Source of the DNA: Protoeuglena noctilucae
Taxonomy: Eukaryota
Direction of reading: 5' to 3'
Assembly: GCA_958009085.1 (NCBI GenBank)
Contig: OY253678.1
Location: 434,001-498,000, forward strand
Length of the DNA: 64,000 nucleotides
A program made the position numbers and the translations under genes. Positions 1,954 through 49,774 of this stretch are shown one piece after another. Every line of letters begins with the position of its first letter. The first letter of the stretch is position 1. The notes beneath the pieces are model-generated. The model worked only from the letters and a program-made list of their open reading frames with translations, did not search any database and was not told the origin of the DNA.

Positions 1954-4119
1954 TCACGACGACTTCTCTCCCGTGGTGTCCACCGCCCCAGCTTTGATGA
2001 GGAGGTCGTTCAGGCCCCTGAGGATGCGCATGTCGCCCGGGGTGTCCCTGTCAAAGTCAACGGCCTTGACGCTGCCAAAGTCGAAAGGCAGCTCGAAGGG
2101 CAGGCTCCCTGGGATTTCCTTCTGAGGCAGGGGGATTCCCGCGGCGTCGTAGCAGAATTGGAACGACTCGAGGAAGCGGCGAGGTGTGCACTTGAACGGA
2201 CCGGTGAAGTGGCAAGAGATGATCTGCGGGGGTGGCGAGGCGTGCAGTTGAATGAGTGTGGTGTGTTGAGACGGGAGAAACCACGGTTGGGCAGCGAGTC
2301 AGAGACGCATGGCCAGCCTGGTGCTATGCCGGGTGGCATGGTGGGCAAAAGAGCTTCCCTGCGGGTGCTACTAGAACCGACGCCACCGCGCGCCCCTCGC
2401 CTTGTCGAAGGCCCAATCGCGGGCGATGCCCTCAGCCCACACGATGGTGGCGCGAGGGACCTTGCTGAAGACCAGGGTGCGCACGACGGGGGAGCAGATG
2501 ACCTGGGGCTCGCAGAGCTTCTCAAACGTCTCGTCGGGGTTCGTCAGGTCCTGGGGCCCGAAGAAGAGGACCTGGGTGCACATGCGGCGCCACCCGAGCG
2601 CACGCGCCACGGGGGAGTCGGCTGGCTTGGGCGAGAAGGGGTTCAGCGGGTTGGGCGCCGCGGCGTCGATGAGGAGCTGCGGGGGCGGGGAGAGTGGCGC
2701 AGGTCGACGAATCTGCCAGCAGCTGCTGCGGGGGTACTGGCGGTGGGGTCGGGCAACGAGCCAGGTCAACATGCAGGCATGGACGGGAACACCTAATCCA
2801 TGGACATCGCATCTCTCGCCGCGCTGCGCACCTCCGGGTCCACGATCTCCAGGGGCTGCCTGGGGACCTGGACGACGCAGTCGGTGACAAGGAGCGTCTT
2901 CGTTTTGCTGTGGAAGAAGGCCACCTCGCAGTAGGGCCCGATCTCGCTGAATGAGTCGTTGCAGTTGACGCGAAGGTCGATGTCTGCGAGGAGAGAGCTG
3001 ATAGGTGATCGAACACAGCTCACCAAAGCGTGCGTGCGTGCGCCGGACCGGCGGCGTGCAACTGCGAGCTGTCAATCACTCCATTCGTCACTCACCCTGC
3101 CTCCACGAGCATTCCTCGGGCGTCAGGTCGTCGGAGAGCTCTTGGACGCTGCGGAAGCCGAGGCCGAGGAAGGAGAGGGGCAGGTTGAGAGGGAAGGACC
3201 ACTGCTTGGGAGCGACCCAGAGGCTCGCGTTGGGGAAGTTGCGGGCGAAGGGTCCGAAGAAGACCTTGTGCTCGATGGCGAACGTCGGCAGCACGATGTG
3301 CTCCACCTCCCCCAGCGACCGCACCATCTCCAAACACTCTTGCGTGGGGGCGATGGGCGCGTGCACCCACAGGCCCCCGGACGACAGGCGGATGACGGTC
3401 ATGCGCGTGTTGATCGTCACGTTGCTGCGGAGGGCGGGCATGCTGAGGTCGGTCACCGTGGGAGGGGCGGCAGAAAGCATGCCCAGCACGACGTGACTCT
3501 GCACTTCGGCTTCGCTGATAGAGGGGACCTGAGGAAGTGCATGCGTACGACCGGTGGCGCGTGCGCCTCGCCATTCATGCCACAGCACGTTCACACCTGA
3601 ATCCGAGCCCCTGAGGCTGCTCGAAGGTCCACAGCACGTTCGGAACGACAGTCTTCATAAGCGTCCTCCTCTCGAACACCGGTCGCAGCGGGAATGGGGA
3701 GCCCAGAAGCGTGTACGACGTGCTGGCCTTGGACGGCGCACCTGCGACCTCAAACTCCACTTGTTTTGCTCCTGCTGTTCGTCGCGCCTTGCCGCCTGTG
3801 TGTCACCCGGCGAGTGAATATCGTCACCCAGCCTCCCTCAACAACGCTGTCGCTCACCTCGTGCACCCTTGGACACCGACGGACGACCCACGGTCTTGTT
3901 GGCTTTCGGCGTGGGCTTGGAGGTTGCAGGCCCCTTCGTGGTGCCGGGGGTGCTGGCCCCGCTGCCGCTCGTCCCGCGCGAACCGCCCAGGAGGTTCACA
4001 AAGATCGAACCACTACCCGGCTTGTCCTTGACCGCTGCCCCGGCCGCGCGCTTGCCCCCAGAGTTGGATTGGGCCTTGTTCGGCCCACCGAGCAGCGCCG
4101 TCACGCGCAGGCCCGACAT
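1954..4119 (-). CDS. DUF4336-family protein (metallo-hydrolase-like), probably plastid-targeted, multi-exon; start uncertain
   Basis: Peptides TLMKTVVPNVLWTFEQPQG, RMTVIRLSSGGLWVHAPIAPT.EC, VEHIVLPTFAIEHK, QWSFPLNLPL, YCEVAFFH.K.KTLLVTD, WAEGIARDWAFD. Stop TGA at 1954-1956. Confidence 0.85.
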
Positions 4120-4737: not shown

Positions 4738-6044
4738 ATGGGGGACTACCACACGACCTATAAGGCTGTGGAGGGCACCACAACCGAGTGGGACGACCTC
4801 CAGGTGCGGGGAAGCGGCCGCGCCGCCTGAAACGATGCCTTTGTCCCTGCGGAAAGCTTTGTCATGAGGTGCATTGGTCAGTCGTGCCGCCGGGTCCCGC
4901 GCCCGCAGCGCAAGTACGGGAACCTCCCGCCCAAAGCGCCCGTGTGGAAGCCAGAAAAGTGGACTTCGGCCGAAGAGCACGCGGCGGTGTCCAAAGATGC
5001 CGTAGACGCGGCAGAGACGGAGCAGGAGCTCGAGGATCTCGAGGTGGACGATGACCGCTTCCTGGAGGCAAGCGGCCCGGGTGCAGGCCCTGCGATGGCC
5101 CCGGCAGGCTGGCCAGCGCCAACCAGCGAGTGTCTGGAGGGTGGCTCACCGTCCTTGGTTCGCTGGCGTCGTCGTCGCAGGAGTACCGGCGGCAGCGGAT
5201 CGAGCAGATGAGGGAGGCAGCAGCGCGGCCGCGATTCGGGTCGTACGATGTCATCAAGGCGAACGAGTGGGAGCAGCAGGTCACGCGAGCGGGGGACGGC
5301 GTGTGGGTGGTACTCCATTTGTTCAAGGCAAGGGGCTGCCAGGGCTGTTGGCACAGCAGGACGGCCGCCGACGCGATGGCGTGGAACGTGTCATGCCCTC
5401 GTCTCGCTGCGTCGCCACAGGACCATGTCTCCCAGTGCGCCATCCTGAACGAGTGCCTGGAGGACCTGGCGAAACGGTACAGCAACACCAAGTTCCTGCG
5501 CATCGTGTCGACCGATGCTATTCCCAAGTACCCCGATGCAGCACTGCCGACTCTGCTCGTGTATCAGGACGGGAAGAAAGTCAAGGATTTCGTGGGCCTC
5601 GAGGTGCTTGCTGGGCAGGGGCTGGAGGGCCGGTGCATCGAACGGCGGACCTGTTGGCGCCGTGCTGTGACTAGTGACTGTTTACGATGTAGGGTGCCAT
5701 TGCGTTCTCTGCAGGTTTTCGGGGGCAGGCGGGTGACCCCGGAGGAGGTGGCAATCAAGCTGAATCAAATAGGGGACATCTGCGCCTCGGATGGCAATGT
5801 GGAGGCTGCGTCACGGCGGGAGGCGCTGAAGCTCCTGGAGAAGGTCGCCATCGAGGTGGGCTGGGTCGGAGGGGCAGGGAAAGGGATGCATGACGGCGCG
5901 ATTGCACCGAGGAGGTGCTTGGTCAGGGCAGCGGTGGGGAGTTGGCCATGCCTTGGGAATGAGGTCCTACTGTACTTACAGTGCGAGCCTGTGCCTCGCT
6001 CGCAGACGCTGGACGAAGAGTCCTCTGACTTTGACGACAGCTAG
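4738..6044 (+). CDS. Phosducin-like protein (PhLP2/PDCL3 type, thioredoxin fold, CCT co-chaperone)
   Basis: The spliced product MGDYHTTYKAVEGTTTEWDDLQ|RKYGNLP..DDDRFLE|EYRRQRIEQM..FGS..WVVLHLFK|..KFLRIVSTDAIPKYPDAALPTLLVY matches the family. It uses two GC-AG introns. Confidence 0.92.
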
Positions 6045-6246: not shown

Positions 6247-7440
6247 TCAACGCGACCGCCGCTTCATGTCCTCGAGCTCCACGTCGATGGCGTCGCGAAG
6301 GGGCCTCCCCTCCGGCAGCGCCCCGGACGGTCCCCGGGCCGACAGCCGCTTGAGCGCCTGCAGGCGACTCGTCCTCTCGTCAGTGCACGCCGTCCGGGCT
6401 GGCAGCCCGCAGAATGACTAGCCTCGAGGATTGACACTTACTCCATCATCCGCTAGCGTCGCTTACCTGCAGGTCGTCCTCGACCGAGTCCCCCTCCAGC
6501 TCTCGGAATCGCTTCTCGATCGTGTCGGGTGCCACAAGCAGGTTCGCCGCCTCCGCTTCGCTCTCCATCGCCAGCACCTTCTCCTCCATCTTCTCAAACG
6601 CTGCGACAATCAAAAGCGAGGCGTTCGCCGCGAAAATAGCTTTGCTCTGCCATCTATGCACGCTCGCAGCCCCGGCGGCCAGAACAGCGCGCGCCGCACT
6701 CACCCACGACCGAGTTGGACGTGTTGAGCTGCCCTACGATCTCGTTGATCTGCTTGGAGGTCTTGGCCGACGCCGCCCGCGCCTTGAGGGTGTCCTTCTT
6801 GGACTTGGCCTCGGCCAGCTTGCCCTCGAGCATGCGCGTGTTGGCGATCAGCTGGTCCGTGGCCTTGCGCTGCGCCTCCAGCTGCTGGCTGAGCTGCTGC
6901 GCCGACTCCTGGTAGCCCTTGCGACGCTTGAGCGCCTCGCGCGCCAGCTCCTCGTCGCCCTTCTCCAGCGCCATCTGCGCGCGGCGGTACCACTCGTCCG
7001 CCGTGTCCTTGGCCTGCTGGTACTTCTTCTCCAGCTGCTTCTGAGACGCCATGACCTGCGCGAGAGGCGGGGCCCGCGGGGTCGCTTCTCTGCGCTCGAC
7101 GGGCTTGAGACGCGAATGCGCGCATCGCGACGTCCACACACCTGCGCCGATGCCTGTCGCATCTTGATGAGGTCCTCCTGCATGTCGTTGACGGCCTGAT
7201 CCAGCACCTGCGAGAGCAATTTCGGCAGGTCATGCACCCGTCGCGATCCGTTGGCGCGCATCTCCTATAGCCGCGCAGTCGCATCCCCCGCGCGTACCTT
7301 CTCAGGGTCCTCGAGTCCAGTCACGATCGTGTTGGCGTACGACTTGACGACGCGGACGAAGCGGCCGAACAGGTTGGCCTCCGTGATGATGCGCGTGCCG
7401 CGGCCCTGCCGGGGCTCGAGCGCCGCGACGCGCTCCAGCG
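6247..7440 (-). CDS. VIPP1: VIPP1/IM30 (PspA/ESCRT-III family) thylakoid membrane protein; transit-peptide exon upstream of 7440 not resolved
   Basis: ANLFGRFVRVVKSYAN..LEDPEK|VLDQAVNDMQEDLIKMRQASAQ|VMASQKQLE..WYRRAQMALEKGDEELAREALKRRK..KDTLKARAASAKT, with the C-terminal helix DAIDVELEDMKRRSR*. Confidence 0.95.
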
Positions 7441-8411: not shown

Positions 8412-10265
8412 ATGCGGCTGGAGGTGGAGCGGGAGCGCTTCCTGGCGGAGAGCCTGCTCAGGCAGCAGCGGCTCGCAGGCGAGGCGCTCTCGTGGCATCC
8501 CGTCCCGCGTCGGGGCTGCATGATGAGTCAACCGCATGGCGTGCTGACGCCCGGCAAACATTCCCTGCTCCGCAGAGCGCCCTGCAGCGACACTGGACCT
8601 CTGCGTCGATGGCCGGGCCGCTGGCCAGGCGCCCGGGCCGGCCCGCGCCCGCACCACGCGCCCTTCAACCGTGGCACCGACACGCGACGTCCTGGACTTG
8701 TTCGCTGGCGACCACGTGCCGCGGCCTCAGGGTGCTTGGAACCCAGGGGGCCAGCGCTCACGCGTCGCCCACGAGCCCCTTCCACAGCGGCCCCGGAGGA
8801 GGCCCCTCAGCGCTCCCACCTACGTCCCGGCTAGCCAGACGACGGGTCGGACCCTCCCTCAGCTCGAGGACGCCCTGCGCCATTGGCTCGTCACGGTGCG
8901 GATGCCTGTCCTGGCCACATGCCTGCTCTGGCATGCCCGCCTTGTGCACCCGCCCGCCCGCTCAAAGTGCCGCTGTGTCCTTCGCAGTGCCGGGAGCTGC
9001 ACGAGAACCGCCGGGTGACCCTTGTGCGCGGCTTGATGATGGGCGTGCCGTGCGTCAAGGACTCCTCGGGGCTGCCCCTGGGCATCCTGGAGACGGAGCT
9101 CGTGAGGCGGAGCATCAAGACGGTCGATGCGGGGCAGCCCACCTCCCGCGTCAGCCAGGTGCTGCGAGCACGGGAGGAGGCCCTGCGGTCCTCACGCACG
9201 TCCCACGGCGTCGCCCTCCCCGTCCTATCGGGGCCCGACCCACCCGCCGCCAGCAACCGCGCCTCGTGGGGGTTCCTCGGAGCCGCCAGCAACCTCCGCG
9301 AGAGCCTGGAAACGCGCAACAGCGTCCTCTTCTCGCCCGCGATGGCCGAGGAGGACCTGCACCGCATCCGCACCGACCGCGACCTCTCGGAGGCCGAGCG
9401 GTGGGGCTACGCGCGGCAGGTGGAGATCGCACGGGCCAAGGCACTCCGGAGCAGGCGAGATAACGGGCGCTTGCGCACAGCTCGCACAGCTACGGTCCCA
9501 CGTATGGCGCAGCAACAGCTCACGTTTCAAGGTGTTTCAGTGAACGTGACGCACGTTCAACCCCAACACCTTGAAACGTGAGCTGCTTCTGTGCCATATG
9601 GATGGTTGAAAGCTGACAGAGCCCAAACAGGGCCGCACGTCTGGTGCAAGGCCGTGGGCAGACCGCAGGACGTGACTGGCACGTGGCACGTGGCTCGTGC
9701 TCGCAGTTCGGCGGCGCTGCCGAACCGTGCGTCGAGTTGGAACCCCAAGGTTCACTATCACCCGGACGCAATCGCGGGCGGAGAAGCGCCGCACACTCCC
9801 GCGGGGGCCTGGTCTGCGCCGCCCCCGCGCCCGCTGTCGGTGCACGCGGAGGCGCGGCTGGCCAAGCAGGAGGCAGAGGCCTCGGCGGTCCGGCACAAGG
9901 GCGCAGGCACCACGCGGATGGTTCTGGCGGGTTTGGTGCTGTCGCCCGCGCAGCTCCAGGAGTCATGGCGGCAGATGCTGGCCGCGGAGGTGGCGCGCTT
10001 GGCGGAGGGCGGCGGTGCGGACGGAGGTGCGCCGCCGGCCCCGGCCCTCTTCGCGCCTCTGAGCGACGCCGAGGTGGCCCTGCTGGTTGCCAAATACGGC
10101 CGGCCGCTGGGGCCCCACGAGACGGTGATTGGGGACGAGGATCGGTTCGTTTCTGGCGTCCCGCTCGCCAGCGAGTCCCTGGTGAGACGGGGCGGGTGCG
10201 GGGGGCGTGTCCTGCACCGTGTCGCAACCCTCCCTCACCCTTGCCCTCGTTGCTACCCCACTGCT

Positions 10266-10315
<50 letters not shown>

Positions 10316-13300
10316 CCCGAACCCCACCCTCACCGTCACCGTCACCCTCACCCTCCCTGCTACACACCCCGCAGAGGGGCTGCGTCCTGGACGTCTCGGA
10401 GGTGGTCGAGGCCGTGTGCCGCGGGGCCAACAAGGACCTCGAGGAGCGGCCCACGGTGCGCGGGGCGCCCGTTTCTGGCGCCGATGACTTTGGTTCCAAG
10501 TATATGCCCCGGTTCGCCCACGCGGCCGCGTACGCGCCCTCTGACCTGGACTCCCGGGCGGCGGCGGAGGCGGCAGCGACAGGGCCCCGGGCGCGGCTCG
10601 AGCTGGAGCACGTGTACGGGTACGCGGGGATGGGCAGCACGGGGCAGAACCTCTTCTACACGCGGCACGGCAAGGTCGTCTTCTACACGGCGGCGGTGGG
10701 CATCGTGGCGGGTGGGTGGCCGGCGCACGAGCCAGTTGCTTTGTGGCTTGCAGAGTTGTTACATGTCGTGTCCTGCTTCTTGGAGGAGTGGGGCTGTTCC
10801 TGGGCTAGCCGGGTTGCCCTTGTGTCGCACGCTTTGTTGGAACCATCCGCACTGGCCCGTCTGTCTTCCGCAGACCCTCTGGAGGCGTCTCAGGTGCCGG
10901 CTCCTACGGGGAAGGACATCGTGGAAGCTCCTCCAGTGATGACCTTCTTCCGCGAACACACAGGCGAGGCCTGCGTTGGCACAGCGAGGCACAGCGACAG
11001 GGAGGTTGCGTGCTTGGACCTCCGCACCTCAGATGACGGCCAACGCTCTCTGCGCTTGCTTGTCCAATCCACGATAGCAAGTTTGCTTAACTCCAAACGC
11101 TGGCGTCATTCTGGCGCGCGCAGATGACATCACGGCTATGGCCGTGCACCCCGACGGCGCGACCGTGGCGACGGGCCAATGCGGCCTGGCCCCGTTCGTG
11201 TGCGTGTGGTCGTCGGTGACTTGCAAGGAGAAGATGCGACTGCGGCACCCGGAGGGATCCCGGGCCATCACCGCCCTGGCCTTCAGCGGGGGCAAGGGCC
11301 GCCTCCTGTGCGCCGTCAGCAGCGAGAACGACCATGTGGTGAGAATGAGGCTGTATGGGATTGGGAATAAGCATTGCAGCATCTCAGCTTGCAATTGCGA
11401 ACCTGTTCTATATGCATGCATCACACGTGTCCAACCTGCAACTGCGTGGTCTTTCCACAGGTCACGGTGTGGGACTGGGCAGCCGGCCGCACCGTGAGCC
11501 GCGGCAACGGCCACAAGGGCACGCCGCCGCAAGTGCTGGGGGCCGAGTGGGACCCTCATCTGGAGACCGGCGAGGAGCGATTCGTGACGTTCGGCGTAGG
11601 GCACCTCAAGGCCTGGCAGCAGGTGTGCGCGTGTGTTGACTCGCCAGCCGTGACGCGTGGCCTTCGTTGCATGCCCAGCGATGTCGGCGAACGCTGCCGT
11701 GGGTTTAGGTACCACTCGCCACCCCTTGTTCGACTCAGTTGCTGAGGTTGGGTCCATCAAGAGAGCGCTTCCTACACCTGTAAGCACAGTCGAAGCAGAG
11801 TCCACGTACCCACCCAACAACCCAAACGCATGCTCCCTCGCTGCCCTCAGGTCGTGACGCGGGGTCAGATGCGGTTCGAGGGGCGGACGTGTGCATGGAA
11901 CGGCGCGGAGCCATCCACGGTCCTCTCTGCTCAGTTCCTGCCACCCGGTCTGGAGGACGGCGTCGCGAGCCTCGTCAAGGACTCTGGGTGCAGCCAGGGG
12001 CGCGTGGGGAAGGGCGGGGCCCGCATCCACGACCGGACTGACGTGGGGTTGATCGTGACGGGGCACCCGACGGGAGAGGTGCTGTTTTGGAAGGACTATG
12101 CGGCGGTCATGAGGCTAGACACTTACACGGCCGACGTGGGCGTGACGGCACGGCGCATGGGGGCCGTGGACGGGGCGCATGGCGTCCGGTGAGCGCCGCT
12201 TTGCGAGGAGCGTGTACAGCGGGGCGCCGATGGTTGTTGTGTACTCTGCATGTGCGCTGGCGACGTGATGATGCAGATTGTTTATGATGGCGACGAGGCG
12301 TCGAGTTGTGGATTTTTGTACCATTTTTGTCGATCCTTTGGCGTTCGCAGGGGTCTGCACGTGTGCCTCCTGGACCCCTCAGGGTCAGAGTGGGACGAAA
12401 CAACTGACCTGACTCCGGCTGACGTCAGGCGAATGGCCACCGCATCCCCCCAGCCCCAAGCTGGGACGGCCAAGAGCCCCGTTGATGCGCCGAGTGCCCG
12501 CCAGGGTCGCCCTGCGACGGTGCGGGAAGGGGAGCCCGTGAAGGCCTCTGCCCAGTCCCGGCCGAGCACCGCGGGGCCAGTATCTGCCGGGCCAGCCAGT
12601 GCCGAGCCGGCCAAGCCCATCGCTGGCAAGGGTGACGACAACGACGGTCGCTCGCCGTCTCGTCCAAGACCCGCGACGGCATCTGCCGCGCAGGCAACTC
12701 CGTCAGCTGCGACCTCGTCCTCTCCCACCCCGGCAGGTCCAGGCATGCAGTCACCGGACCGTGCAACGGCGGGACCCAGGGCAAAAGGGGTCGCCACACC
12801 GGGCTCTGGTCCCGTGACGATCGACGCGTCGACCGTGTCTGGCAAAGGGCTTGCCAAGCCCTGGGAGCTTCGGCCCTTGGTGGCCGTCCCTCCTGACGAC
12901 TTGAGTGACGCCTCCCCACCGCCCCTGGAGCCTGCGTCGGCTCCCCGGGGCCCGCGGTCCGCGAGCGCCGACAGGCGACCGGGAGTCGGGTCCACGCGCC
13001 CGCCGGACGCGAGCCCGGGCAGCCTGGGGTCCGTCAACACGAGCGCCGACTCGACGGCCAGCAGCGCTCTGGCGGGCCTCCTCCGCGCCACCACCGGGGC
13101 CCTGTTCGGCTCCAGCCCCGAGTCGCCCTCTCTTCAGGGCTCGCACGGGTCGCCATCCCGCACGCCCCTGAGCGGCTCTGCGGCCTCGACCAACGCTTCC
13201 TCGCCAGGCCCACGCGCCAGTGAGCCACGACCGGGGGGTCACTCGAGGAGCCGACTGGGAATGGACGCGCGCGCGAGTGGCTCTGGGGCCGTGCTGGACC

Positions 13301-16300
13301 GTGCGCCCCGGGACACGGAGGGTGGCTGGTCACCTGGGCTGGGCACCGATGCGTCCGGCGAGGATGCCAGTGCTGAGTCAGGCGATGGTCAGGGGACCGG
13401 GACGTCCACAGAGGTAGACTTCGCGCTGAGCAGCATCGTCAGCGAAGCAGCGGGGGACGCGGAGTGGGCCCTGGAGGGGCCGGGTGGAGCAGGAGGGGGC
13501 CGCGCTCGCGATGGGGCGGCGGGTCCCAGCAGAGCGGGGGTGGGCGCTGCGAGCGGGTCTGCGCCCGATGTGTCGGCGTCCTGGGCGAGCCGTCGCCTGG
13601 CGGACAGTCGGCTGGACATTGTGGGTGACCTCGGGTCGTCCGGCAGCCTCTCCCTGCCTGGCAGCAGCGTCGGGAGTCTGGGGCTCGACAGGAGTGCGGG
13701 CGCCGTGGCAGGTTCAAAGAAAAGGGATGCGGGTGCCGCGAGGCAGCGGGCCGGCCTTGCGCCGACCGGGGCGGCGAGGCGTGACGGGATGGTCGCGGCG
13801 ACTGCGGCTGCAGCTCGCGAGGACGCCCAGGCCCCACGTGGCGTTGCAGAGGGTGCGGAGGTGCCTGGTGCCTCTGCGTCGAGGAGCGTGGGGTCCAAGG
13901 CCCTCCCGGGGATACCCCAGGGCCTCCTGCAGGCGAGTGCTGCTGCGGTCGATAGCACACGGAGCGCCGAGGCTGAGATGTGTGTCAATGTCTTGTTTCT
14001 GCTTTGTGAACGCGGGAGGAGCATCAACGCCACGCCACTCAAACATGCATGCCCTATGCTGTGCAGGTGCCTGGGCCTGGAGTTCCAGCAGGCGGAGCCA
14101 AACCCAACGACGCCAACAAGCCAACTGAGGCAGCCAAGCCAGCTGAGGGTGCAACAGATGGTGGCAAGCCTGCTGCTGGTGGCAAGCCGACGACTGAGGC
14201 AGCCAGGGCAACGACTGAGGCAGCCGGGGCGAGGGGTGACGGCAAGCCAACGGACGGTGACAAGCCAACTGAGGCAGCCAAGCCAAGCGAGGCGCCCAAG
14301 CCAGTTGAGGCAGCGAAGCCCAGCGAGGGTGTCAAGCCTGCGGGTGTTGGCCAGCCAGCGCAAGACGGCAAGCCGACTGAGGCAGCCAAGCCGACTGAGG
14401 CAGCCAAGCCAGCAACTGAGGCAGCCAAGCCAAGCCAGGGTGTCAAGCCTGCGGATGCGGGCAAGCCAGCGCAGGAGGGCAAGGTGGAGGCAACCAAGGC
14501 GACAGACGGCAGCAGGCCAGCTGAGGTGCCTAAGGCTGCGGTTGACAAGCCAGCTGACGCGGCCAAGCCTACGACTGAGGCAGCCGGGGCGACGGGTGAT
14601 GGCAGGCCAGCAGAGCGCGGCACAGCACCAGCGGCAGCCAATCCAGAGGAGGCGACCACGTCTGCGGGGAGTGGCAAGCCGGCCGATGGTAGCAAGCCGA
14701 GCGATGCAACCAAGCCTGCTGACGTTGGCAAGCCTGCTACAGTGCCCAAGCCAGCGGACGGTGGCAAGCCAGCCGAGGGTGGCGAGACAGAGGCAGCCAA
14801 GCCAGCTGAGGGTGGCAAGCCAATGGACGGTGGCAAGCCATCTGAGGCAGCCAAGTCAACGGAAGGTGGTGGCAAGCCAGCTGAGAGCAAGCCAAGTGAC
14901 ACCGCCAAGCCGACGACTGAGGCAGCCAAGCCTGCGGATGGTGGTGGGAATCCAGCTGAGGCAGCCAAGCTGACTGACCGTGGCAAGCCATCTGAGGGCG
15001 GCGTCCCGACTGACGCTGCCAAGCCAGCTGAGGTGCCCAAGGCAACACAGGCACCCAGGGCGGCGGATGACAAGCCAGCTGACGCGGCCAAGCCGGCGGA
15101 GGGTGGCAAGCCTATGGACGCTGCCAAGCCAACGACCGAGGCAGCCAAGCCAAACGAAGCAGCTAAGCCGATGGTGGGTGACAAGCAAACTGAGCCAGCC
15201 AAGTCGACTTATTGTGCTACAGGCGTTGGCAAGCCGGTCGACGCGCCCAAGCCAGCTGAGGCAGTCAAGCCGATGACTGAGGCAGCCAAGCCTACAACTG
15301 AGGCAGCCGGGGCGAGGGATGACGGCAAGCCAACGGACGGTGGCAAGCCAACTGAGGCAGCCAAGCCAGCAACTGAGGCAGCCAAGCCAACTGAGGGTGG
15401 CAAGCAGGCTGAAGCGGCCAAGCCGACGACTGAGGCACCCAAGCCCACCAAGAGTGGCAAGCCTGCGGGCACTGGTAAGCCAGCCGAGGCAGCCAAGCCA
15501 GCTACGGTGCCCAAGCCTGCGGACAGTGGCGACAAGCCAGCAGAGGGTGGGAAGCCAACTGACAGTGCAACCGACAGTGGCAAGCCTGCTACTGGCGGCA
15601 AGACGGACGCAGCCAAGACGACGACTGAGGCAGCCAAGCCTGTCAACACTGGCAAGCCGGCAGAGGGGGGCAAGCCAGCAGAGGGTAGCAAGACGGAGAC
15701 GGCCAAACCCAGCGAGAGTGGCAAGCCTGAGGGTGCTGGAAAGCCGACCGAGGCAGCCAAGCCGACTGAGGGTGCCAAGCCGACTGAGCCAGCTGTGGTA
15801 GCCAAGCCTCCGGAGGGTGGTGGTAAGCCGACGGAGGCGACCAAGTCTGGGGGGAGTGGCAAGCCGGCCGATGGCAGCAAGTCGAGCAATGCAGCCAAGC
15901 CTGTTGATGCTGGCAAGCCAGCAGAGGGTAGCGAGACGGAGATGGCCAAGCCGACTGAGGGTGGTAAGCCTATGGAGGGCGGTGCCAAGCCAGCCGAAGG
16001 TGGCAAGCCAGCAAAAGAGGGCGGAGGCAAAGCAAGTGCCGCAGCCAAGCCAAGCGACGCAGTCAAGCCGACTGAGGCATCCAAGCCGACTACCACGCCC
16101 CAGGTCACAGAAGCAGCCAAGCCAGCTACGATGCCCAAGCCTACGGACAGTGGCGGCAAGCCCGTCGACAGCAAGTCCCCAGTCCCTGGGGCCTCACACG
16201 CGGGCAGCCAACCTACTGCAGCCCACGACGCCTCCGGTGCTCCGTTGGACACGGATGCTTCCAGAGACGAGGACGTGCTGCGCCTGAGGGGCGGCCGGTG

Positions 16301-19300
16301 GTCACCTTCGGACGTCGGCATGACGATGTGGAGTCCGTCCGGAGGAAGCGGCTCCGTGGCGACGAGCCAAGCCGGGGAGCCACAGGCACCTTCGCCAGCT
16401 CCGCCCGTCCCCGCTAGAGAAACACCGCCCGGGAAGTTGTCGCAGGTGGCGCGGTGGGTGCAAGCGGCGCTCGCGGAGGTGCCCGAGGGCAGCATGGGCC
16501 CGAGAGCATTGGTCCTGGCTGAGTCGGACCTCTCTAGCGATTCAGGAGAGGGCGCTGGGCTGCCGTCTCCATCCACGTCCAGCTTGGACGTGTCCATCAC
16601 CCCGCGTCGCCCGGTGCGTGCTGAGGCCAGTCGTGGCGAAAGCGGCGGCCGCGTCGACCCAGCAGGGTCTTGCCAGCTGGATGGCGGTCTGTCGGAGTCC
16701 TGGTGGGGCAGCGACACGGGTTCCGATGACAGCGTGGTCGAGGCTGCTGCGTACGACGGGGTCCTTCGGCTCCGCGGTGGGGCGCCGCGGGGCACGGCAC
16801 CGGGGAGCGGCGCCAGTGCCGCCAAGGGGGGCGGCGAGGGCAGAGGGGCGGCTGCAACGGGCGTTAGCGCTGGGCGGGGCGGCGGGGCGGCCGCGTCGGG
16901 TCCCTTCCTGTCGGTTTTGTCCGTGGGCGCAAGGGATGGTGCGGACCGGTATAGCGGTGCGGCACAGGAGCTCCCTGACTGGGTGCCTGCGGTCTCGCAG
17001 TCACCTGGGCCGTCAGGGATCGGTCTCAGCCGGGACGGGCGAGGGCAGGGGGCCGTGGCGGCCACCGCTGGGGTCGCGACTGGCCGTGTGGCGGTGACTG
17101 CCAGCCGCCCCACGGATGCCGTGCCCCTGATGCGCGCTACCGAGCCAGCGGGTCCGGCTCCGGTGGGCAGGATCGATGGTCCGGGCTTGCCAGGGTCCTC
17201 GGGACGACCAGCGGAGCCCTTGCGGCCGCCCTCGCGTGCTGCGGCCAGTCGGCCTCGGTCAGCGGCAGCACCGGTGCCGAGCATCACCGCTGCCCCCGGC
17301 TCAGCCAGGGTCGCGGAGGTTGTTGCAGATGGGCCGGCTGTCCCGCCGCCAGCAGCGCCAAGGGCGCCGCTGAGCATCGCGGCACAAGTGCTGGCGGCGA
17401 AGCGCCAGAGAGAGGCGGAAGCCGCGGCAGCAGGACCCACGCCGTCGACCGCTGAGGTGGCCGCAAGCAGGCTCAAGACAGGGCCCGGGTTTCCACCCCA
17501 AGAGCCGCGGTGGGCGCTGGTCACGGGTGGCTGGGACGGCACCGTGCGCGTGTTTGACATGGGCAATGACATGTCGCTGCCTCGTCAGGGCGCGGGGCGG
17601 CGCCCGGTGGAGATCGCGCTGCCACGATGGCCCAGGGACGAGCCACAGGCCATCCGGGCCCTCCACGTCAGCTCTGCCCGGCGGTGCGTCGTGGTGGGCA
17701 CGAGGGACTGCGACGTGTGGGAGGTCCCGCTGCCGGACCAACTCTTTGGAGACTCCCTCCGGTCGTTGGAGGCCAAGCATACGTCTGGGGACGGCGGGCC
17801 AGCTGCCGCAGAGACACAGGCGTCCGCAGATGCGCAGGGCAGGTCTGGGGGGCGCCAGGGCAGCGCGGGCGCCGCCGACCGTGGCGGCCGTGCTCCTCAA
17901 GAGGCCGCTGGGGGTCAACGGGCAGCTGACCGGCCCGTGAAGATGGCAGGTGACCCCGCAGCCGCAGCACCGCGGGTGGTGGAGGGGTCACGGGCGCCAG
18001 CATCTGGGACGGCAGCGGCTGGGATGGCGGGCGCCGCGGCGGCACCGGGGGCCACGCTCGCGGCGCGACTGGCCCGCCTGGGCCCCAACGTCATCGTGCG
18101 GCTCGTGAACGGCAATGCCGGGGAGCTGACGTGCGTGTCGTGGCACCCCCGCGCCACGGCCGTGTTCGCGACCGCTTGCTCCACGCGCGAGGTCTTCATC
18201 TTCCATGCGGCCCACCGACACTCCATCGGGCTGCCCATCGTCGCCGTCGCGCCCGTCGAGTCAGTCGCCTTCTCTCGCCCGGACGGGGCCCACATCGCCG
18301 TCGGGTGCCGCGACGGGACTCTCCAGGAGAGATCCAGATTGGTGTGGGCTTGGCTGGCTGGGTTGCAGCAGCACCCCTTGGGTCCCACTCGCGCATGCCG
18401 CGCTCGCGCTTGCTAACCCTTCCGTTTTCACGACCTTCCGTTCCTTACGCGCCTCCGCCCGTCTCCGCCCGCAGATCTTCGACCGCAGCCGCCGCGAGGT
18501 GTTCCGGCGGCGCCTGGCCTCGCGGGGCATCGGCTGCCTGCAGTGGTCGCCAGATGGGGCCGTGCTGGCGGCCGGGTCCCACGACCGCTGCATCGACCTC
18601 CTGCGCGCGTCGCGGGACGGCTGGGCCACCTACGCCCGCTGCCGGGGCCACTCCGCGACCGTCCTGCAGATGGACTTCTCGGCGGACGGCCTCGTGCTGC
18701 AGACCAACTGCAACGCGTACGAGTGCCTGCACTGGGACGTGGCGACCGGGCGGCAGCTGGCGCAGAACCAGAGGGACCGGCGGTTCGCGACCTGGACGTG
18801 CCGGCTGGGGTTCCCTGTCATGGGCATCTGGCCGGAGCACGCGGACGGCTCGGACGTCAACGCGGTTGACCGGGACCCCCAGTCGTCGCTGCTGGTGGCG
18901 GCCGACGACTTTGGCGACGTGCGGCTCTTCAACTGGCCCTGCTGCGTGCGCGGGGCTCGGTGCGCCGTGTACGGCGGCCACTCGTCCCACGTCGCGTGCG
19001 TCCGGTTCAGTGCAGATGGACGCAGGGTGCTGTCGGTGGGGGGGCTGGACCGGGCCGCGTTCCAGTGGCGCGTCGTCGACCGCGTCAAGAGCCACGATGG
19101 GGACGCCGTCGAGGGCGACGGGGGCCTGGGGCGGGCCGCGGGTGCGGTCGTGGGCGCCCAGGAGCTCATGGAGGGTGGCGCTCCCCATGTGGAGGCGGCG
19201 GTGCGGATGGCGGCGGCGGCGGCGGCGGCGGAGAGGGCGGGCGCGGACGGCGGGTCGGCGACGGCGGCGCTGGCGGACGTGCTGGTGGAGAGGGCGCAGA

Positions 19301-19512
19301 TGGCTGGGGCCGGCAGCCGGACCTACGCCAAGCGTCGTTTGGCAGAGCTGAAGAGGCAGCTGGACGAGGAGCTGCAGCGGGCCGGGTTCGGGCGCCCGAA
19401 GAGCGCGGCGCGAGTGGATAACGCGGGGCGCGTGTGGACCCGATTGGACCCCGAGGGCCGCCGCTACGGTTGGGCCGACGCGGGCGACGAGGGGCCTGCC
19501 ATCGGGATCTAG
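8412..19512 (+). CDS. Giant EML (echinoderm microtubule-associated protein-like) HELP + WD40 protein with a huge low-complexity insertion; about 3,000 aa, multi-exon; start uncertain
   Basis: HELP motif LELEHVYGYAG..QNLFYT..GKVVFYTAAVGIV (~10600-10710) and the blade H.DDITAMAVHPDG.TVATGQ. The C-terminal EML signature RGHSATV.QMDFS..FATWTCRLGFPVMGIW..DVNAV..ADDFG.V.LF.WPC..YGGHSSHV..VRFS..SVGG.D..FQW lies at 18640-19070. Phase-compatible splice sites link the parts. Confidence 0.85.
9503..9598. repeat. Near-perfect inverted repeat/hairpin (MITE-like or pre-miRNA-like) within an EML intron
   Basis: tatggcgcagcaacagctcacgtttcaaggtgtt pairs with aacaccttgaaacgtgagctgcttctgtgccata. An inner stem is formed by tgaacgtg/cacgttca. 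TA lies at both ends. Confidence 0.9.
10266..10355. repeat. (ACCCTC)n hexamer microsatellite in an EML intron
   Basis: About 15 tandem ACCCTC or variant units are directly visible between the donor at ~10183 and the acceptor at 10374. Confidence 0.95.
14095..16170 (+). repeat. Coding minisatellite of ~18-bp units encoding (T/A)E(A/G)(A/G)KP hexapeptides
   Basis: AAGCC(A/G)ACTGAGGCAGCC and GGTGGCAAGCC units recur throughout. The frame stays open for the whole 14067-18326 exon. Confidence 0.95.
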
Positions 19513-24187: not shown

Positions 24188-25831
24188 TCAGGGCGGCTCG
24201 GTGCTGGCCCCCCGCTTCCTGCGCCGCGCGTTGCTATGCGCCTCCACGATCTCCTCAGCAGGAACGCCGTCCAGCAACATCCGGCGAATCGTTAGCTCCT
24301 CCCGCTGCCGCTTGCGGGACCTCCCAGCAGGCCTCGGGCCCCTCCCGCCGTCCGCGCCCGAATCGCGTACTGCACCGCCCTCGGCTGCTGCGACGTCGCC
24401 ACCCGGGGCGGCGCTCGCAGCCGCCAGATCCCGCGCGGCCGCCGCCACCACGTCGCGCACCCGCGCCGCCTCAGCCTCCCTGCGCTCGAGCACGGGAGGC
24501 AGCGCCGCGGCCGTGACCTCCGTGAGGGTTGCCGAGGGTGCCTGCTGCCCCGCCCCGAGCTGCTCGGAGAGCCGGAAGAAGGACTGCACCAGGCGCAGGT
24601 CCGACACCAGGGCCTGGTCGGTGGGGTTGGCGAACCAGGGGATCACCCGCGCTGCGTCGCGCAGCCGCTGCAGCACTTCTCGGTAGCGCGAGGTCACGGA
24701 GGACGCCGACACGGGGAGCCTGTCCGCCAGGGCGGCCGGGGTGACGTCCGCGAAACCCTCGTGCTGCGCCGCCACGCACGCGCACGCCGCGGCGAGGGGC
24801 AGGGGCTGGCGGCCCTCCGACAGCGAGAATTGGACGCAGAGGTCCCAGAGCCAGAGGGCGTCGGAGAGCACGCGCTGGAACTGCATACCACAGGGAACGC
24901 GGAAGTTTGTCGTATTTGCACCCGTCCAGCAAGTGCGTGAGGCTGCTGCGCTCGCCTTGGATTTCAACGACTCGCCGCGGGCGTTGGACGCGGCAAAGTC
25001 CGTGGCTGCGCCCAGGGCTCGCGTCGCGAGCGCTCGCGGGTCGTGCGACGGCACCTCCACCCCAAGGGTTTCGAGGGCAGAGCGGTACGCAGCGGCAACA
25101 CGCGGTGCCGGCTGTCCCACTGCTTCGCAGACGTCGGCGAAGGTGACGGGCTGCCCCGACTGGCGTGCGGCGATCAAGGAGCACGCTCCTGCCTGCGGGG
25201 GCGACGCGGTGGGCCGGGTGAGACAAAGGGCGACGCACCCTCGGGCAACTCTAGGCGTGACGCTCTCTTGAACGCGCACCAGGCGGTCGACCCACGCGCC
25301 ATGGCCCCGCACGTCCCCCAGCACTCGGAAGAGAAGGTCCCGCGCGACATCCGCGACGTGGTCGGGGAGCCGCAGCACCCTGATGACGTGCTCCGCTTTC
25401 GCATGCGTCGCCGCGTTCCGCGCCCTGGCCGCCGCTACGGTGGAGCGCGCCCTGCAGAGGCAAGCGCCAGAAGCTGCGTTGGCGCGACCGCACGCGTCAT
25501 CGCGCGCCGCGCAGCGAGGGAATCAACCGCGAATCTCACCGGGGTGTTGACGCCTCCGCCAGCTCCCCAGGGCGCTCCCGAATCTGTGTGAAGCCTTCCG
25601 TGTATCGCACCTCCTGCTCATCGACCATGCTCTCCTCCAAAACGGTCCTGCATGCACGCGACGAGCCGCTTTCCCGGCGTGCGGCACGCGTGGGCTGCCC
25701 GCAGCGACGTGGGGACGTAGCGCGCTCCCTCACCCGCAAGTCGGACAGAACAGGAACGCCTCCGTCGCGTCCTTCTCGAGAGTCCCGCAGGCGCACTCCG
25801 GGCAGTTGCCTGGGCCCACTGGTGCGGCCAT
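24188..25831 (-). CDS. TFIIB-related factor, BRF2/PTF2-like (Zn ribbon + two cyclin folds)
   Basis: N-terminal MAAPVGPGNCPECACGTLEKDATEAFLFCPTCG|TVLEE zinc ribbon. Also AGACSLIAARQSGQPVTFADV, LSEGRQPLPLAAAC and the C-terminal ELTIRRMLLDGVPAEEIVE. Confidence 0.8.
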
Positions 25832-28817: not shown

Positions 28818-31800
28818 TCACGCTCCCCCGGACGGCGGGGCCCCGTCCTTCTCGGACCGCGGCTGGCTGTCCGTCCGATGGCTCCCAGGCGCGGGGGTCC
28901 CGTCCTCCCCGTCGCCCTTCCTGCGGTGCAACGAGCTTCGGCGTACGATAGGGCCCCAGCCACCGAGATGCTCCGCCCCACAAGCAGCCTGCCGAAACAG
29001 CCACACGCGGCGCCCCACCCTCTGCGCCCCACTCACCGTGTGGACACCGAGAACTGCACCCCGCCGCGCTTGGCCGACCCCGACTCTGCCGGTGCCTTGC
29101 CGTCGCCTGTTGCTGCCGGCCGGTCGCCCTTCTCCGCGACCTCGGCGGCCGCATCGCGCGGATTGACGGTGTTCGACCGCCCCGGACCCGGCCGCGCGCC
29201 CGCAGACCGCGCCTGGGACCGGCTGGGCAGCACTCCCCCCGGGCGCGGCCCAGTGGTGGACGGGGCAGTGCGCATGTTCCCCATCAAGTGGCCCTCCAGG
29301 ATGCCTTGGCCCGACGACGTCGACATGTTGACTGCGGAGAATGCGTTGGCTTCTAGTTAAGACAATTTGAGCGGCTGAGGTGCGAGGGCGCAGCAAAACA
29401 TCAGTGCGGTGATAAGGCATGCGATGAAAATCCGCTGAGCCTCACACCTTCCATTTCTATGAAAGGGTCCAGTTTGCTTTGCAGCACTGCCTCCGCTGCG
29501 GCAAGTGCCGCCACCTGCTCGCCCAGCGTGCGCACCAGCTGCGCCACCGCCTGTTGCCCTTCCCCCGCGTCCCACGGGCTCAGCGGCCCTGCGGCCCCCG
29601 CCTCCGCCCGGTTGCCCGCCACGTGATGCGGCGACCACGAGTTCCGGTTCGGGAGCTGCCCGTTCACCACCCCCACGCTCCCGCTGCGCACGATCGCCTC
29701 GCCTCCGGGCCCCAGCGGGGACGGCGCCGGCGCCCGAAACAGCGCCCCCGGCGCGTCCGCGCTCCGCGTCACCGCCCCCGCGTCCCCATGCGCCTTGTCC
29801 ACCGACGACATCCGCACCGGCACCCCCTCGACGTGTGACGTTGTCGCCACACCCCCGCGCACGCTCGTCCGCATCGACGGCCGGTCCTCGCTCGCGCTCC
29901 GGTGCGTCTCGCGCGCCGCCAGCTGCACCAGCTTCTTCTGCAGCGCCGGGGCCTCCCGCCCCTCAAACGCCTCGTCCTCGATGTTCCCGGTGTTCTGGAT
30001 CTCTTGCAGACGCCCCAGCGCCGCCTCGCGCACGCGCGCGGCGGAGTCGGGGAAGTCCTTCATCGTCGCCGCCAGGTCCACGGCCCGGAGCACCGCCATG
30101 TCGCAGTGGCTCAGCGTCGTGCAGTTGGCCGTCCGCCGCGCCGTCGCCAGCTGCGGGGGCGCAGCACAGGGCGGCTCCAGGCGGCTCCGCGCAGCCACCG
30201 CTGCCGCCCCCGGCACCAGCTCAGCGCAGCCACCGTTGCTGCTTACTTGGCAGCCGCGCCGCAGCCCTCACCAGCGCCAGCTCCCCGAAGAACCCGCCCT
30301 CCCGCAGGATCGCCACCGTCTCCCCGTGCGAGTTGATTACGGCCACCTTCCCCTTGTAGATCAGGTACATCTCGTAGCCCACGTCGCCCGCCCGGAACAC
30401 GATCTCGCTCGGCATGTAGACGGCATGATGCAGGCGCGTGACCAGGCTCGTCACGAACGCGTCCTCCACGCTGGCGAACAGCGGGATCATGCGCACGCGG
30501 TCGCCGTGCAGGTACATGGACACGTCCTCGTACAGCGACGACGGCAGGTCCTGCAGGTACTTCATCCCGTCCGGGCCCGGGTGGGAGAAGTTGGCGAGGT
30601 ATTCGTAGTACTCCTGTACTCGGTCAGATATGTCCTGAGGCAGCCCTAAGTAGCGAACGACGTCCATGACGAGCTCTTGCTTGTGCTTGTGGCGAGCGTT
30701 GGTGGCGTTAAGGTTGGAGACCAGCAGGGCCATGTTACCGATGATGGTGGCGTAGAACATGGCCCCGATCAGAAGCACGATGGAAGCGTAGAGCCGCTCC
30801 GCGTTGTTGACGGGCACGATGTTTTGGCCGCCCATGGCGCAGAACATGAGGTAGAAGCCCTCCAGGTACCGAGCCGTTAGCGAGTCGTCTTTGCCGCGGC
30901 CTAGGTTGTAGAACCACGTCGGCTCCTTGTTGGCGAGCTGCCACGCGATGTAGTGCCACCCGCAAGTGAGCCAGTGGCATAGCAGGACCATGATGAAGAT
31001 CAGTCGGAAGATGCGGAAAATGTTGGCGCCCTTCATGCGCTCCAGGAAGCGCAAGAGCTTGCCCAGACGCAGCAGCCGCGGCGTCTTGAGGAAGGTCAGG
31101 ATCTTGACGTTCTTGCCGAAGTTGATCCCCAAGCCCTGGGCCACTGCACGCACGCAAGGCACAACCGTCGCTGACCTTGCATGTGCGAACGTCTGGTGGC
31201 CACCAGAGGCCACGCTGCAGCCGCCAACGCCCCGCAGCGCGCGCGTCGCATCTGCTCACGCAGGTCAAAGGGGATGGACGCCGCCAAATCGATCCAGAAC
31301 CAGAACGCAATGTACTTCCGCGTGATCTTGGCCGGTTCTTTCACGACGTTGCCCTGAGTGTCGATGTATGCCGTCCGGAAGTTAAGGAGCATGTCGCCGA
31401 AGAACACAAAATCGTTTGCAAGCTCGAAGTTGGTGAGCCTGCGATGGTCAGGGTACCGCCAGGGAGGCGTCAGCAGAACGCAGCACCAGTGCCATGTGCG
31501 CAAGAGCCGGGCCCGGGTCCTGCGCTGCAGCTCCCAGCTCCCGCTGCGACGCAGGACGCGATGGGACTCACTTGGTCACTGGCTCGAACCCCACGTTAAA
31601 GGGCACGAGGACTGCGCTGTACACCACGATGAGGAGGATCAAGAAGTCCCAGTACTTGCGCCACCGCGCGTCCGGCATCAAGATGGGAAGGCGTTTCTCG
31701 AAGATCTTCATCTCTCGGACCTCTTTGAGCCACTTCTTCACTCCACGCAGCACGGTGGGGTCGTGGGGAGCTCAGCGCCTCCTTCCAAGCACCCAGCGCG

Positions 31801-48233: not shown

Positions 48234-49774
48234 TCACTCGTCCTCCATCGCGTCCTCCTGCATGTCCACCCCGCCCAGCAGCAGCAGCGCGTCCGCCAGC
48301 TCCTCCATCTCCCTCTGTAAGCGAGGGAAACGCAACGCGGCCGTCATCCACCGCGACCCTCAGGCACTCCCTGCCCTCGCTGCCCCGCCCGCGCCCCACG
48401 CGCGACTACACGGCACCACCACGACCACGACCGCCCCGCCGCATCCGCCCACTCGCCTGCTCGCTGTTCTTGCGCTTCTCCATCCGTCGTGCGCTCCGGC
48501 GCACGGGGCCGTCGTCCTCGTCGCCGTCCCCGTGGTCGTCGCCCGACGACAGGATCGGCGAGTGGCCGGCCGCGGGGGCGCCGCGGCGATAGGTGAAGGC
48601 GGGCGCGGCGGGCGCCGAGGACGCCAGGGCCGCAGCGGTCGGGAAGCGGCCGAACCCGTCATCATCGCCCTCGTCGGGGAAGTTGGTGACGGCCCGGGGG
48701 CCCCGGATCTGCCGCGCCGCGCGGTCGTACGCTCGCGCCGCCTCCTCGGCCGTGTCGAAGGTCCCCAGCCACAGCCGCGCGCCCTTGTTGGGGTCCCGGA
48801 TCTCGGCGGCAAACTTGCCCCACGGCCGCTGGCGCACGCCGCGGAACTTGACCCCGCCCGACTTGGAGACGGCGCCGCCCTGGACGGCCTTGAGGGCGCT
48901 CGACACCCCGGCGGCGGAGCGGCGGGAGGCGGACCGCGGGGCGGAGGCGCCGAGGGGCGGGGAGCGGCCCAGCGGGGACGACCCCGCGGTGGTCGCGGCC
49001 GCGTGGGCCGACCGGCGGTCGGGGACGGCCGGGGTGGTGGGGAGCGGGTGCGCGCGGGACGCCGGGTGGGGGGGCGCGGGGGACGCGACGGACGGCTTGC
49101 GGACGGCGGGGGCCGGCACAGGGGCCGAACCCACCAGCATGGGCATGGGCCCCGAGTTGACGCCCGGTCCCGGCGGGCCCTGCGACCGACGCAGAGGGGC
49201 TGCCCGGATCGCCCACTGAGCCTCGCCGTGCGCGTCTCCCATCGCATCGCTTGCACCAGCAAACGGACTTGCCTGGAAGAACGTCGTGAAGACCACGGGG
49301 TACGGACTGACGATCGATATCGGGGCGCCGGCGGGGCCCGGGGCTCCGGGCGCGGCCTTAAGCGCGCCGGCGGCGGGGCCATGGATTCCCGAGACGGGGA
49401 GGGGCGGCATCGCCGCGTTGCGGAGCATGGCGGAGAGCCCGCCGGCGGGCGCGGGGGGGCTCTTGGCCGCGATCTTGTGCGTGGACACCTCCTCGGGCGC
49501 CGGATGATGTTGCGCCGGCTCCGGATCGCCGCCCGCCACCGCCCCGTCCGCGCCGTCCATGGGCTCGGACAGCGAGTCGTCCTTGGGGGACCAGGGCGGG
49601 GAGGGCCCGAAAGTGGAAGGAGGCGTGACGTGAGAGGCCTGCGGGGGGGCGCGGGGGCGTGGCGTGTCGGCGGCGGGCGGGCGCGCGGCCGCCGCATGTG
49701 CCGAGGAAGCGCCCCCATCGCACCTTCGTGGGCGGAGCCTGGACGGCCCCAACGTCGTACGCGGCGGTCATCAT
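48234..49774 (-). CDS. AP2/ERF transcription factor; may have further upstream exons
   Basis: [58 protein letters not shown]. The last exon [26 protein letters not shown] follows a GC-AG intron. Confidence 0.95.

Follow-up and report, generated by a model that had tools for sequence, protein, structure and literature searches.

Ubiquitin-tail motifs without a ubiquitin fold in an EML-like protein of Protoeuglena noctilucae

Can the tail of ubiquitin work as a signal in a protein that has no ubiquitin fold? This question is raised by a locus in the genome of Protoeuglena noctilucae, in a window of 64,000 nucleotides (nt) (contig OY253678.1 of assembly GCA_958009085.1, positions 434,001 to 498,000 of the forward strand; coordinates below count from the first letter of this stretch). 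A gene for an EML-like protein in the window has a long exon that encodes VLRLRGG twice, and VLRLRGG is the sequence of ubiquitin residues 70-76. The original prediction, made from the window alone, regarded both copies as candidate cleavage sites for deubiquitinases (DUBs), or else as decoys or docking sites. Here, we describe copies of LRLRGG in orthologous proteins of marine green algae and argue that they are probably places where enzymes that recognize the ubiquitin tail cut the chain or dock to it.

The motifs and their conservation

Both heptads are encoded in one frame of the + strand open reading frame (ORF) 14010..18416, termed P0001. The orthologues compared were P0004, a protein of Pedinophyceae sp. 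YPF-701, and P0123, a protein from a metagenome contig of an uncultured relative; P0124, from an independent assembly of the same organism, is 99.6% identical to P0123 and has both motifs. The loci of P0123 and P0124 are L001 and L002, and a slash after Gly-Gly marks the end of the motif.

16275..16295, + strand: ubiquitin-tail motif 1, VLRLRGG, then R-W; spanned by RNA contig X1 record 3; orthologous copy ALRLRGG/VG in P0123 (L001, 8127)
16761..16781, + strand: ubiquitin-tail motif 2, VLRLRGG, then A-P; spanned by RNA contig X2 record 14; copies in P0123 (L001, 8688) and P0004

Motif 1 stands in the context RDEDVLRLRGG/RW, with V at 16275 and the last G at 16295, and motif 2 in the context AYDGVLRLRGG/AP; the 162-codon spacer between them is 16296-16781. 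The codons of motif 1 (GTG CTG CGC CTG AGG GGC GGC) and of motif 2 (GTC CTT CGG CTC CGC GGT GGG) differ in seven of seven cases with 0 residue changes, and the 50-residue flanks of the two motifs gave no alignment on either side. A six-frame scan of the 64 kb found LRLRGG nowhere except at these two sites; a single, unrelated RLRGG was present in a minus frame at 29969. From composition, 6e-5 copies of LRLRGG are expected in P0001, 2e-3 in P0123 and 9e-4 in P0004, where 2, 2 and 1, respectively, were observed, and shuffled sequences contained LRLRGG in 0 of 3000 cases for P0001, 5 of 3000 for P0123 and 2 of 3000 for P0004. That the two motifs are read in frame within a transcribed exon, as had been assumed, is borne out by RNA contigs from marine metatranscriptomes that match the window without mismatch: record 3 of X1 (15979-16434) passes motif 1 and record 14 of X2 (16668-17607) passes motif 2, each without a joint. 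These libraries could contain DNA. X1 also holds a spliced contig (18323/18472), and therefore mRNA of the EML-like gene is present in X1.

An alignment of orthologues had been proposed as a measure of motif conservation, and LRLRGG is kept in P0123/P0124 as well as in P0004. It is invariant in five of five copies from three lineages, at equivalent places in the insertion described below (two copies in the window, two in P0123/P0124 and one in P0004). P0123 has SEDEALRLRGG/VG and, 187 residues on, SGAVLRLRGG/AP; P0004 has the single motif DDDEGVLRLRGG/SG (VLRLRGG/SG), 136 residues ahead of the resumed blade. LRLRGG is preceded by V in four of the copies and by A in one, and an acidic residue lies at most 4 positions upstream of the motif in all of them. 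The residue after Gly-Gly (P1') is R, A, V, A and S across the five copies; the lack of proline noted for the window sites thus extends to all (0/5), a count that is statistically weak. A small residue is kept after the blade-proximal site (A, A, S). Two elements of the original prediction did not generalize: the Arg proposed as an N-degron at the start of the spacer is Val in P0123, and P0004, with one motif only, could not give three pieces.

When the two window motifs are compared with their counterparts in L001, their twelve LRLRGG codons have 6 synonymous differences and 0 replacements. Selection at the protein level, first argued from codon usage in the window, is supported far more strongly by five copies from three lineages with LRLRGG invariant and many synonymous differences. 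Identity to the window is 60-62% for P0123 and 53-55% for P0004 in the blades, and the loops around the motifs are ~25% identical, the level to be expected from composition alone. BLAST of the linkers gave long, composition-driven alignments and was used only for spotting islands; a MAFFT alignment of the three linkers did not place the second motifs in one column, and the motifs were compared by pattern instead. Since LRLRGG is invariant while its codons changed synonymously and its surroundings diverged, a functionless relic is all but ruled out. Very probably, it is a selected functional element of some kind, and judged by these sequence comparisons purifying selection acts on the two heptads as short linear motifs that reproduce ubiquitin residues 70-76; the insertion in which they lie is carried by a lineage of green-algal EML proteins.

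P0004 and P0123 were found only via the propeller. A phmmer search with the 417-residue linker against 1.84 billion representative proteins gave 0 matches, and a word-based search with P0001 residues 720-1140 found no linker homologue among 8000 candidates scored; composition filters may hide true relatives of the linker. A metagenome scan with alignment A1, which covers the resumed propeller (17502..18326) with 62% identity to P0123 and 53% to P0004, yielded 52 pattern matches, of which two loci were confirmed, both from the organism of P0123, and no further lineage. A phmmer query of 30 residues taken from around motif 1, too short to inform, had 0 matches in the PDB at E ≤ 10.

If the motifs were the ends of ubiquitin or ubiquitin-like (UBL) domains, as in fusion precursors, a beta-grasp fold should precede Gly-Gly. 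Pfam found no ubiquitin domain in P0001 at E ≤ 0.01. With the threshold relaxed to E ≤ 10, PF00240 and the other UBL families were still missing from the residues that precede the two window motifs (102 and 162, respectively) and from the stretches ahead of the second P0123 motif and the P0004 motif. An AlphaFold model of P0001 residues 661-994, calculated without an alignment, had a mean predicted local distance difference test score of 39, no strands and coil at both motifs, and its sole helix of at least 4 residues is the conserved helix of the spacer. This single-sequence, low-confidence model is weak and counts only as absence of evidence for a fold; it agrees with Pfam, and the original prediction that no ubiquitin fold lies ahead of the motifs stands. 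Thus, the beta-grasp fold of ubiquitin/UBL fusion precursors was not found, and their tail ...LRGG with a non-Pro P1' is present in five of five copies, in each of which R-x-R-G-G lies in an unfolded context as judged by composition and the AlphaFold model. Among the Pfam families listed (the best 25 of 30 and 37), only HELP, WD and EML families occurred in the ORFs of the gene, in P0004 and in P0123, with no papain-like protease or USP catalytic domain among them.

The insertion and the gene that carries it

What kind of protein carries these motifs? By Pfam, the gene is EML-like, with HELP motif, Beta-prop_EML and Beta-prop_EML_2 in the usual order. Its features are as follows.

10585..10704, + strand: HELP motif (Pfam PF03451, E = 2e-13; residues 134-173 of ORF 10186-11124)
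10711-10872, + strand: GT-AG intron; joint in RNA contig
10964-11123, + strand: GC-AG intron; joint in RNA contig
11120..11413, + strand: first EML beta-propeller, N-terminal blades (Pfam PF23409 Beta-prop_EML, E = 1e-15, profile positions 9-114)
12337..12375, + strand: last strand before the insertion, FGVRRGLHVCLLD; counterpart YGIRGLQVACIV in P0004 and HGVRGLRCFRLE in P0123
12376..17501, + strand: giant, mostly disordered insertion of ~1,700 codons with one inferred intron inside (alignment with 13 EML homologues; RNA contigs cover parts)
13933..14066, + strand: inferred GC-AG intron of 134 nt, joining frame 12193.. to frame 14010..; frame-compatible, ends GCGAGT...GTGCAG
14190..16087, + strand: degenerate 18-nt (six-codon) tandem repeats with units of the KP(T/A)E(A/G)(A/G) type; species-specific; RNA contig X1 covers 14432-14801
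16440..16475, + strand: conserved helix SQVARWVQAALA, then E, inside the inter-motif spacer (AlphaFold model residues 151-162); aligns with SRVARWVRDALG of P0123
17502..18326, + strand: propeller resumes (EPRWALVTGGWDGTVRVFD...), end blades of propeller 1 and start of propeller 2 (Pfam WD40, Beta-prop_EML_2; alignment A1)
18327..18474, + strand: intron of 148 nt, ends non-canonical (GA..AG); record 6 of X1, an RNA contig, has the joint (18323/18472)
18475..19512, + strand: second EML beta-propeller and C-terminal tail to the stop codon (Pfam PF23414, E = 5.6e-67; C-terminus like that of P0004)

The HELP match, as found in EML/EMAP proteins, scored 50 bits (gathering score, 27), and PF23414, with 226 bits (cutoff, 90), accounts for the second of the tandem propellers. 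The PF23409 match is fragmented (58 bits for a single exon ORF), which is expected for a split, intron-containing gene, and full-length P0004 and P0123 exceed both propeller cutoffs of Pfam.

The motif-bearing region had been described as the EML linker. Aligned with 13 EML homologues, it does not connect the two propellers: it is an insertion within a blade of propeller 1, at a site that in other EMLs is a short connection between the conserved blade segments ...GVRGL... and ...EPRW.L..GG.DG.VR.... Among the 13 homologues, the insertion is common to P0004 (368 residues, 810-1177) and P0123 (864 residues, 883-1746) only, compared with ~1,700 codons in the window; the 11 other EMLs have 124-216 residues over the same columns, no insertion and no LRLRGG. 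A second EML-like gene fragment is present in the window at 34734-36128 (+), with both propellers contiguous in one ORF; its visible part has no long insertion and no LRLRGG, and the fragment may represent a paralogue with the usual compact layout.

Small conserved islands are scattered over the insertion, namely, KPWEL (window and P0123), L..T..G.FG[SD] (all three proteins), LRLRGG, the helix S.VARWV..AL and LAAKRQRE/LLAEKRERE (the latter two in the window and P0123), and LRLRGG is the most strictly kept of them. The insertion looks like a string of linear motifs. The spacer, which the original prediction considered disposable, carries the helix S.VARWV..AL common to the window and P0123. Upstream of the motifs, ~1.9 kb (14190-16087) of transcribed repeats encode KP-rich hexapeptides of the KPTEAA/KPAEGG type, with an AT skew of +0.31 to +0.50 (A over T) and no counterpart in P0123 and P0004. 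In run X5, which holds 0.99 of the sampled words of the stretch, depth was ~70-80 at 14638-15371 vs ~350 elsewhere; this drop suggests that the KP repeat is hard to assemble or variable in length. The part of the P0123 loop that corresponds to the KP repeats (residues ~1300-1330, L001) contains ATRIQAVARGNRDRELAAQLRRR, which we take to resemble an IQ-type calmodulin-binding helix. From 17059 (X1, X3 and X5) and from 17049 (X1), contigs of two RNA runs and of run X5 no longer follow the window and continue over 255 letters in unlike sequence; a second haplotype, or a further copy, might diverge here within the loop. A DNA joint from 10578 to 16826, with a depth of 6 vs ~350, is probably an assembly chimera and was disregarded.

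The predicted exon 14067-18326 is upheld. Its 3' junction (18326/18475) is supported by RNA, and the spliced product across this intron, GTLQIFDRSRRE, fits both orthologues; none of the four possible placements of the junction 18323/18472 yields GT-AG or GC-AG, the best being GA..AG. On the 5' side, intron 13933-14066 follows from frame and splice signals only and is crossed by none of the listed RNA contigs; its GC content is 0.575, vs 0.725 in the exon stretch 16200-17500. Gaps in contig cover, such as 13904-14270 in X1, cannot be taken to indicate an intron. Two GC-AG introns thus occur in one gene (10964-11123, in an RNA contig, and the inferred 13933-14066), and GC-AG introns may be in frequent use in this genome.

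The neighbouring ORFs have matches to ordinary nuclear gene families: aldehyde dehydrogenase (1073-1750), DUF4336 (2374-3654, -), phosducin-like (5055-6041), PspA/IM30 (6657-7229, -), TFIIB (24191-25522, -), cyclic-nucleotide-gated channel (30224-31255, -), AP2 (48409-49767, -), HAT-repeat splicing factor (56395-58729) and PP2C (61564-62915). A Pfam scan of 150 window ORFs detected neither peptidases nor DUBs.

Tail-only processing and its alternatives

How could a ubiquitin tail be used without the body of ubiquitin? The most likely answer, drawn by analogy, is processing after Gly-Gly by a peptidase that recognizes R-x-R-G-G independently of the fold, most likely of the ZUFSP type; we put its probability at about 0.45. 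RLRGG has been described as the final five residues of ubiquitin, with roles for Arg72 and Arg74 (PMC5824887, PMC8776766). Peptidases of the ZUFSP, ZUP1, Mug105 and AtZUP kind act on an RLRGG peptide, and all ZUFSP-family enzymes, Arabidopsis AtZUP included, cleave RLRGG-AMC (AMC, 7-amino-4-methylcoumarin) faster than ubiquitin-AMC (PMC5824887, PMC8776766). The family is widespread in plants, animals and fungi and was lost in many lineages (PMC5824887, PMC8776766). All five algal motifs keep R-x-R-G-G, that is, the determinants used by ZUFSP enzymes, which we count for cleavage; the P1' residue, never Pro and otherwise variable (R, V, A, A, S), is compatible with a protease whose recognition is confined to the P side.

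In the proposed mechanism, LRLRGG would be recognized by an enzyme that reads the ubiquitin tail, and a peptidase for which R-x-R-G-G suffices, with no need of the ubiquitin body, would most probably sever the chain behind Gly-Gly; ZUFSP/ZUP1, which has plant members, is the best described class of such peptidases. The cut would open the loop and leave an N-terminal piece that ends in a free ...LRLRGG and a C-terminal piece that begins with a small residue (Ala or Ser). Proteins with two sites would in addition release a middle piece of 162-187 residues with the conserved helix, and the propeller halves could remain joined non-covalently.

Several points weigh against such processing. The cleavage itself is purely inferred. 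Typical DUBs need folded ubiquitin and do not cut RLRGG-AMC, and UCHL3 and the coronaviral papain-like protease (PLpro) cut it weakly (PMC5824887, PMC8776766). ISG15 ends in RLRGG and is not processed by ZUFSP, and the authors of that study suggested that substrates beyond the pentapeptide may be occluded from the enzyme (PMC5824887). A ZUFSP-family gene was looked for with Pfam in the 150 window ORFs only, and none was found there. Only three lineages were found, one of them with a single motif, and the lack of Pro at P1' in five sites is a weak argument. Finally, the spacer contains the conserved helix, which speaks against its being disposable.

If the motif is read and not cut, it could be a docking or pseudosubstrate site: the tail mimic would fill the tail-binding cleft of an enzyme (a DUB, an E1 or some other reader of the tail) and thereby recruit or inhibit it at microtubules. 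This would leave the same conservation as cleavage. It agrees with the behaviour of typical DUBs, which bind the tail and poorly cleave tail-only peptides (PMC8776766), and with a conservation that reaches ubiquitin position 70 (V in 4/5, A in 1/5), beyond the minimal RxRGG. However, most DUBs bind isolated tail peptides weakly, and the invariant GG, which a scissile site needs, exceeds the demand of binding alone. The known tail-specific readers, the ZnF-UBP domains, require the free carboxylate of Gly-Gly and hence prior cleavage. We therefore regard an uncleaved docking site as unlikely, if worth keeping in mind. The identity with the ubiquitin tail might also be coincidental and the motif serve something unrelated to ubiquitin, be it as the remnant of a WD-repeat strand, a SUMO-interaction-like core with an acidic flank, an arginine-methylation RGG or a contact with tubulin or a partner. 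The acidic residue upstream of every copy would suit this, and motif 2, DGVLRLRGG, resembles the next blade (DGTVRVFD in the window, DGVVRLWD in P0123 and GGVVRMFD in P0004), so that an origin from a duplicated WD strand is conceivable. True WD strands vary, however, at this place (VRVFD, VRLWD, VRMFD), whereas LRLRGG is invariant in 5/5; motif 1 lacks DG, the flanks of both motifs are free of other WD features, and coil is predicted at both by the low-confidence AlphaFold model. Moreover, a match of 6-7 residues to the most conserved tail of eukaryotes, with R, R, G and G all fixed, is unlikely to be coincidence, and a ubiquitin-unrelated function appears rather improbable to us. An LIR-like (LC3-interacting region) reading of motif 2 as Y-x-x-V was ruled out, since the aromatic residue is missing in P0123.

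Internal ubiquitin fusions are known from other algae (PMC6332867), and the motifs might be functionless tails left by decayed ubiquitin domains; or they might be a product of chance, since L, R and G are specified by GC-rich codons and GC makes up 67% of the window. Neither agrees well with the data. Invariance amid diverged surroundings, together with synonymous codon change, is unexpected without function, no ubiquitin-like remnant was found upstream at E ≤ 10, and the chance expectation of 6e-5 to 2e-3 per protein compares with 2, 2 and 1 observed; decay or chance is thus highly improbable.

Tail-only processing can be taken further, in a proposal that we advance as speculative. The bare ubiquitin tail might be a portable, cell-encoded processing signal in green algae: a peptidase of the ZUFSP type, or a new tail-specific one, would nick the loop at one or two LRLRGG sites and free the helix-bearing fragment, and the N-terminal ...VLRLRGG end might be read by tail receptors or degron pathways.

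Comparison with known systems and significance

Is there a precedent for such a signal? Ubiquitin/UBL fusion precursors (polyubiquitin, ubiquitin-ribosomal fusions, FAU, SDE2, TUG and the internal ubiquitin fusions of algae) also have an internal ...RGG or GG tail with a variable P1' that is never Pro, but there a folded ubiquitin or UBL domain stands ahead of the tail, whereas the EML protein has only the last 6-7 residues. FAU, SDE2 and TUG are non-ubiquitin proteins that contain a UBL domain and are processed by DUBs (PMC8013793). The expected EML products would end in Gly-Gly, as do those of the fusion precursors, and Gly-Gly-ended products are a C-degron for KLHDC2 in human cells (PMC8013793). 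USP1 is, like the EML protein, a cellular non-ubiquitin protein with an internal diglycine in a loop; it autocleaves after this Gly-Gly, and its N-terminal fragment is then removed via the GG end (PMC8013793), whereas the algal cut is putative. Unlike USP1, which is itself the DUB, the EML protein has no peptidase domain by Pfam.

A tail-like site without a ubiquitin fold that serves to cut a long precursor is found in viruses. Polyproteins of the coronavirus type are cut at LXGG by a papain-like protease encoded in cis, whereas the EML gene has no protease domain by Pfam, and the algal motif matches ubiquitin over 6-7 residues compared with 4 for viral LXGG. PLpro is also mentioned in PMC8776766. 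The protein itself is like the EML/EMAP microtubule-associated proteins in its HELP motif and tandem propellers and differs from the 11 other aligned EMLs in that a propeller-1 blade is split by a disordered insertion of 368 to ~1,700 residues.

Full-text literature searches for internal cleavage, ubiquitin-tail mimics, linear motifs and LRLRGG in algae found no description of a tail-only motif in a cellular protein. In the available sections of PMC5824887 and PMC8776766, ZUFSP enzymes were assayed only on a synthetic peptide and on ubiquitin chains; a natural tail-only substrate is not named there, and no search was aimed at one. The algal EML protein is therefore a concrete, testable candidate for the natural tail-only substrate that is hinted at by the activity of ZUFSP on peptides.

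The common view is that processing of the ubiquitin kind depends on the fold of ubiquitin, and the split-ubiquitin method is built on this. Processing or recognition signals of the ubiquitin type are known; what would be new here, in our reading of the sequences, is the signal without the fold. If the motifs are docking sites, they would represent a new class of linear motif in the ubiquitin system. If they are cleaved, a cytoskeletal protein would be matured or regulated in a novel manner, and LRLRGG would in addition be a compact natural cleavage tag.

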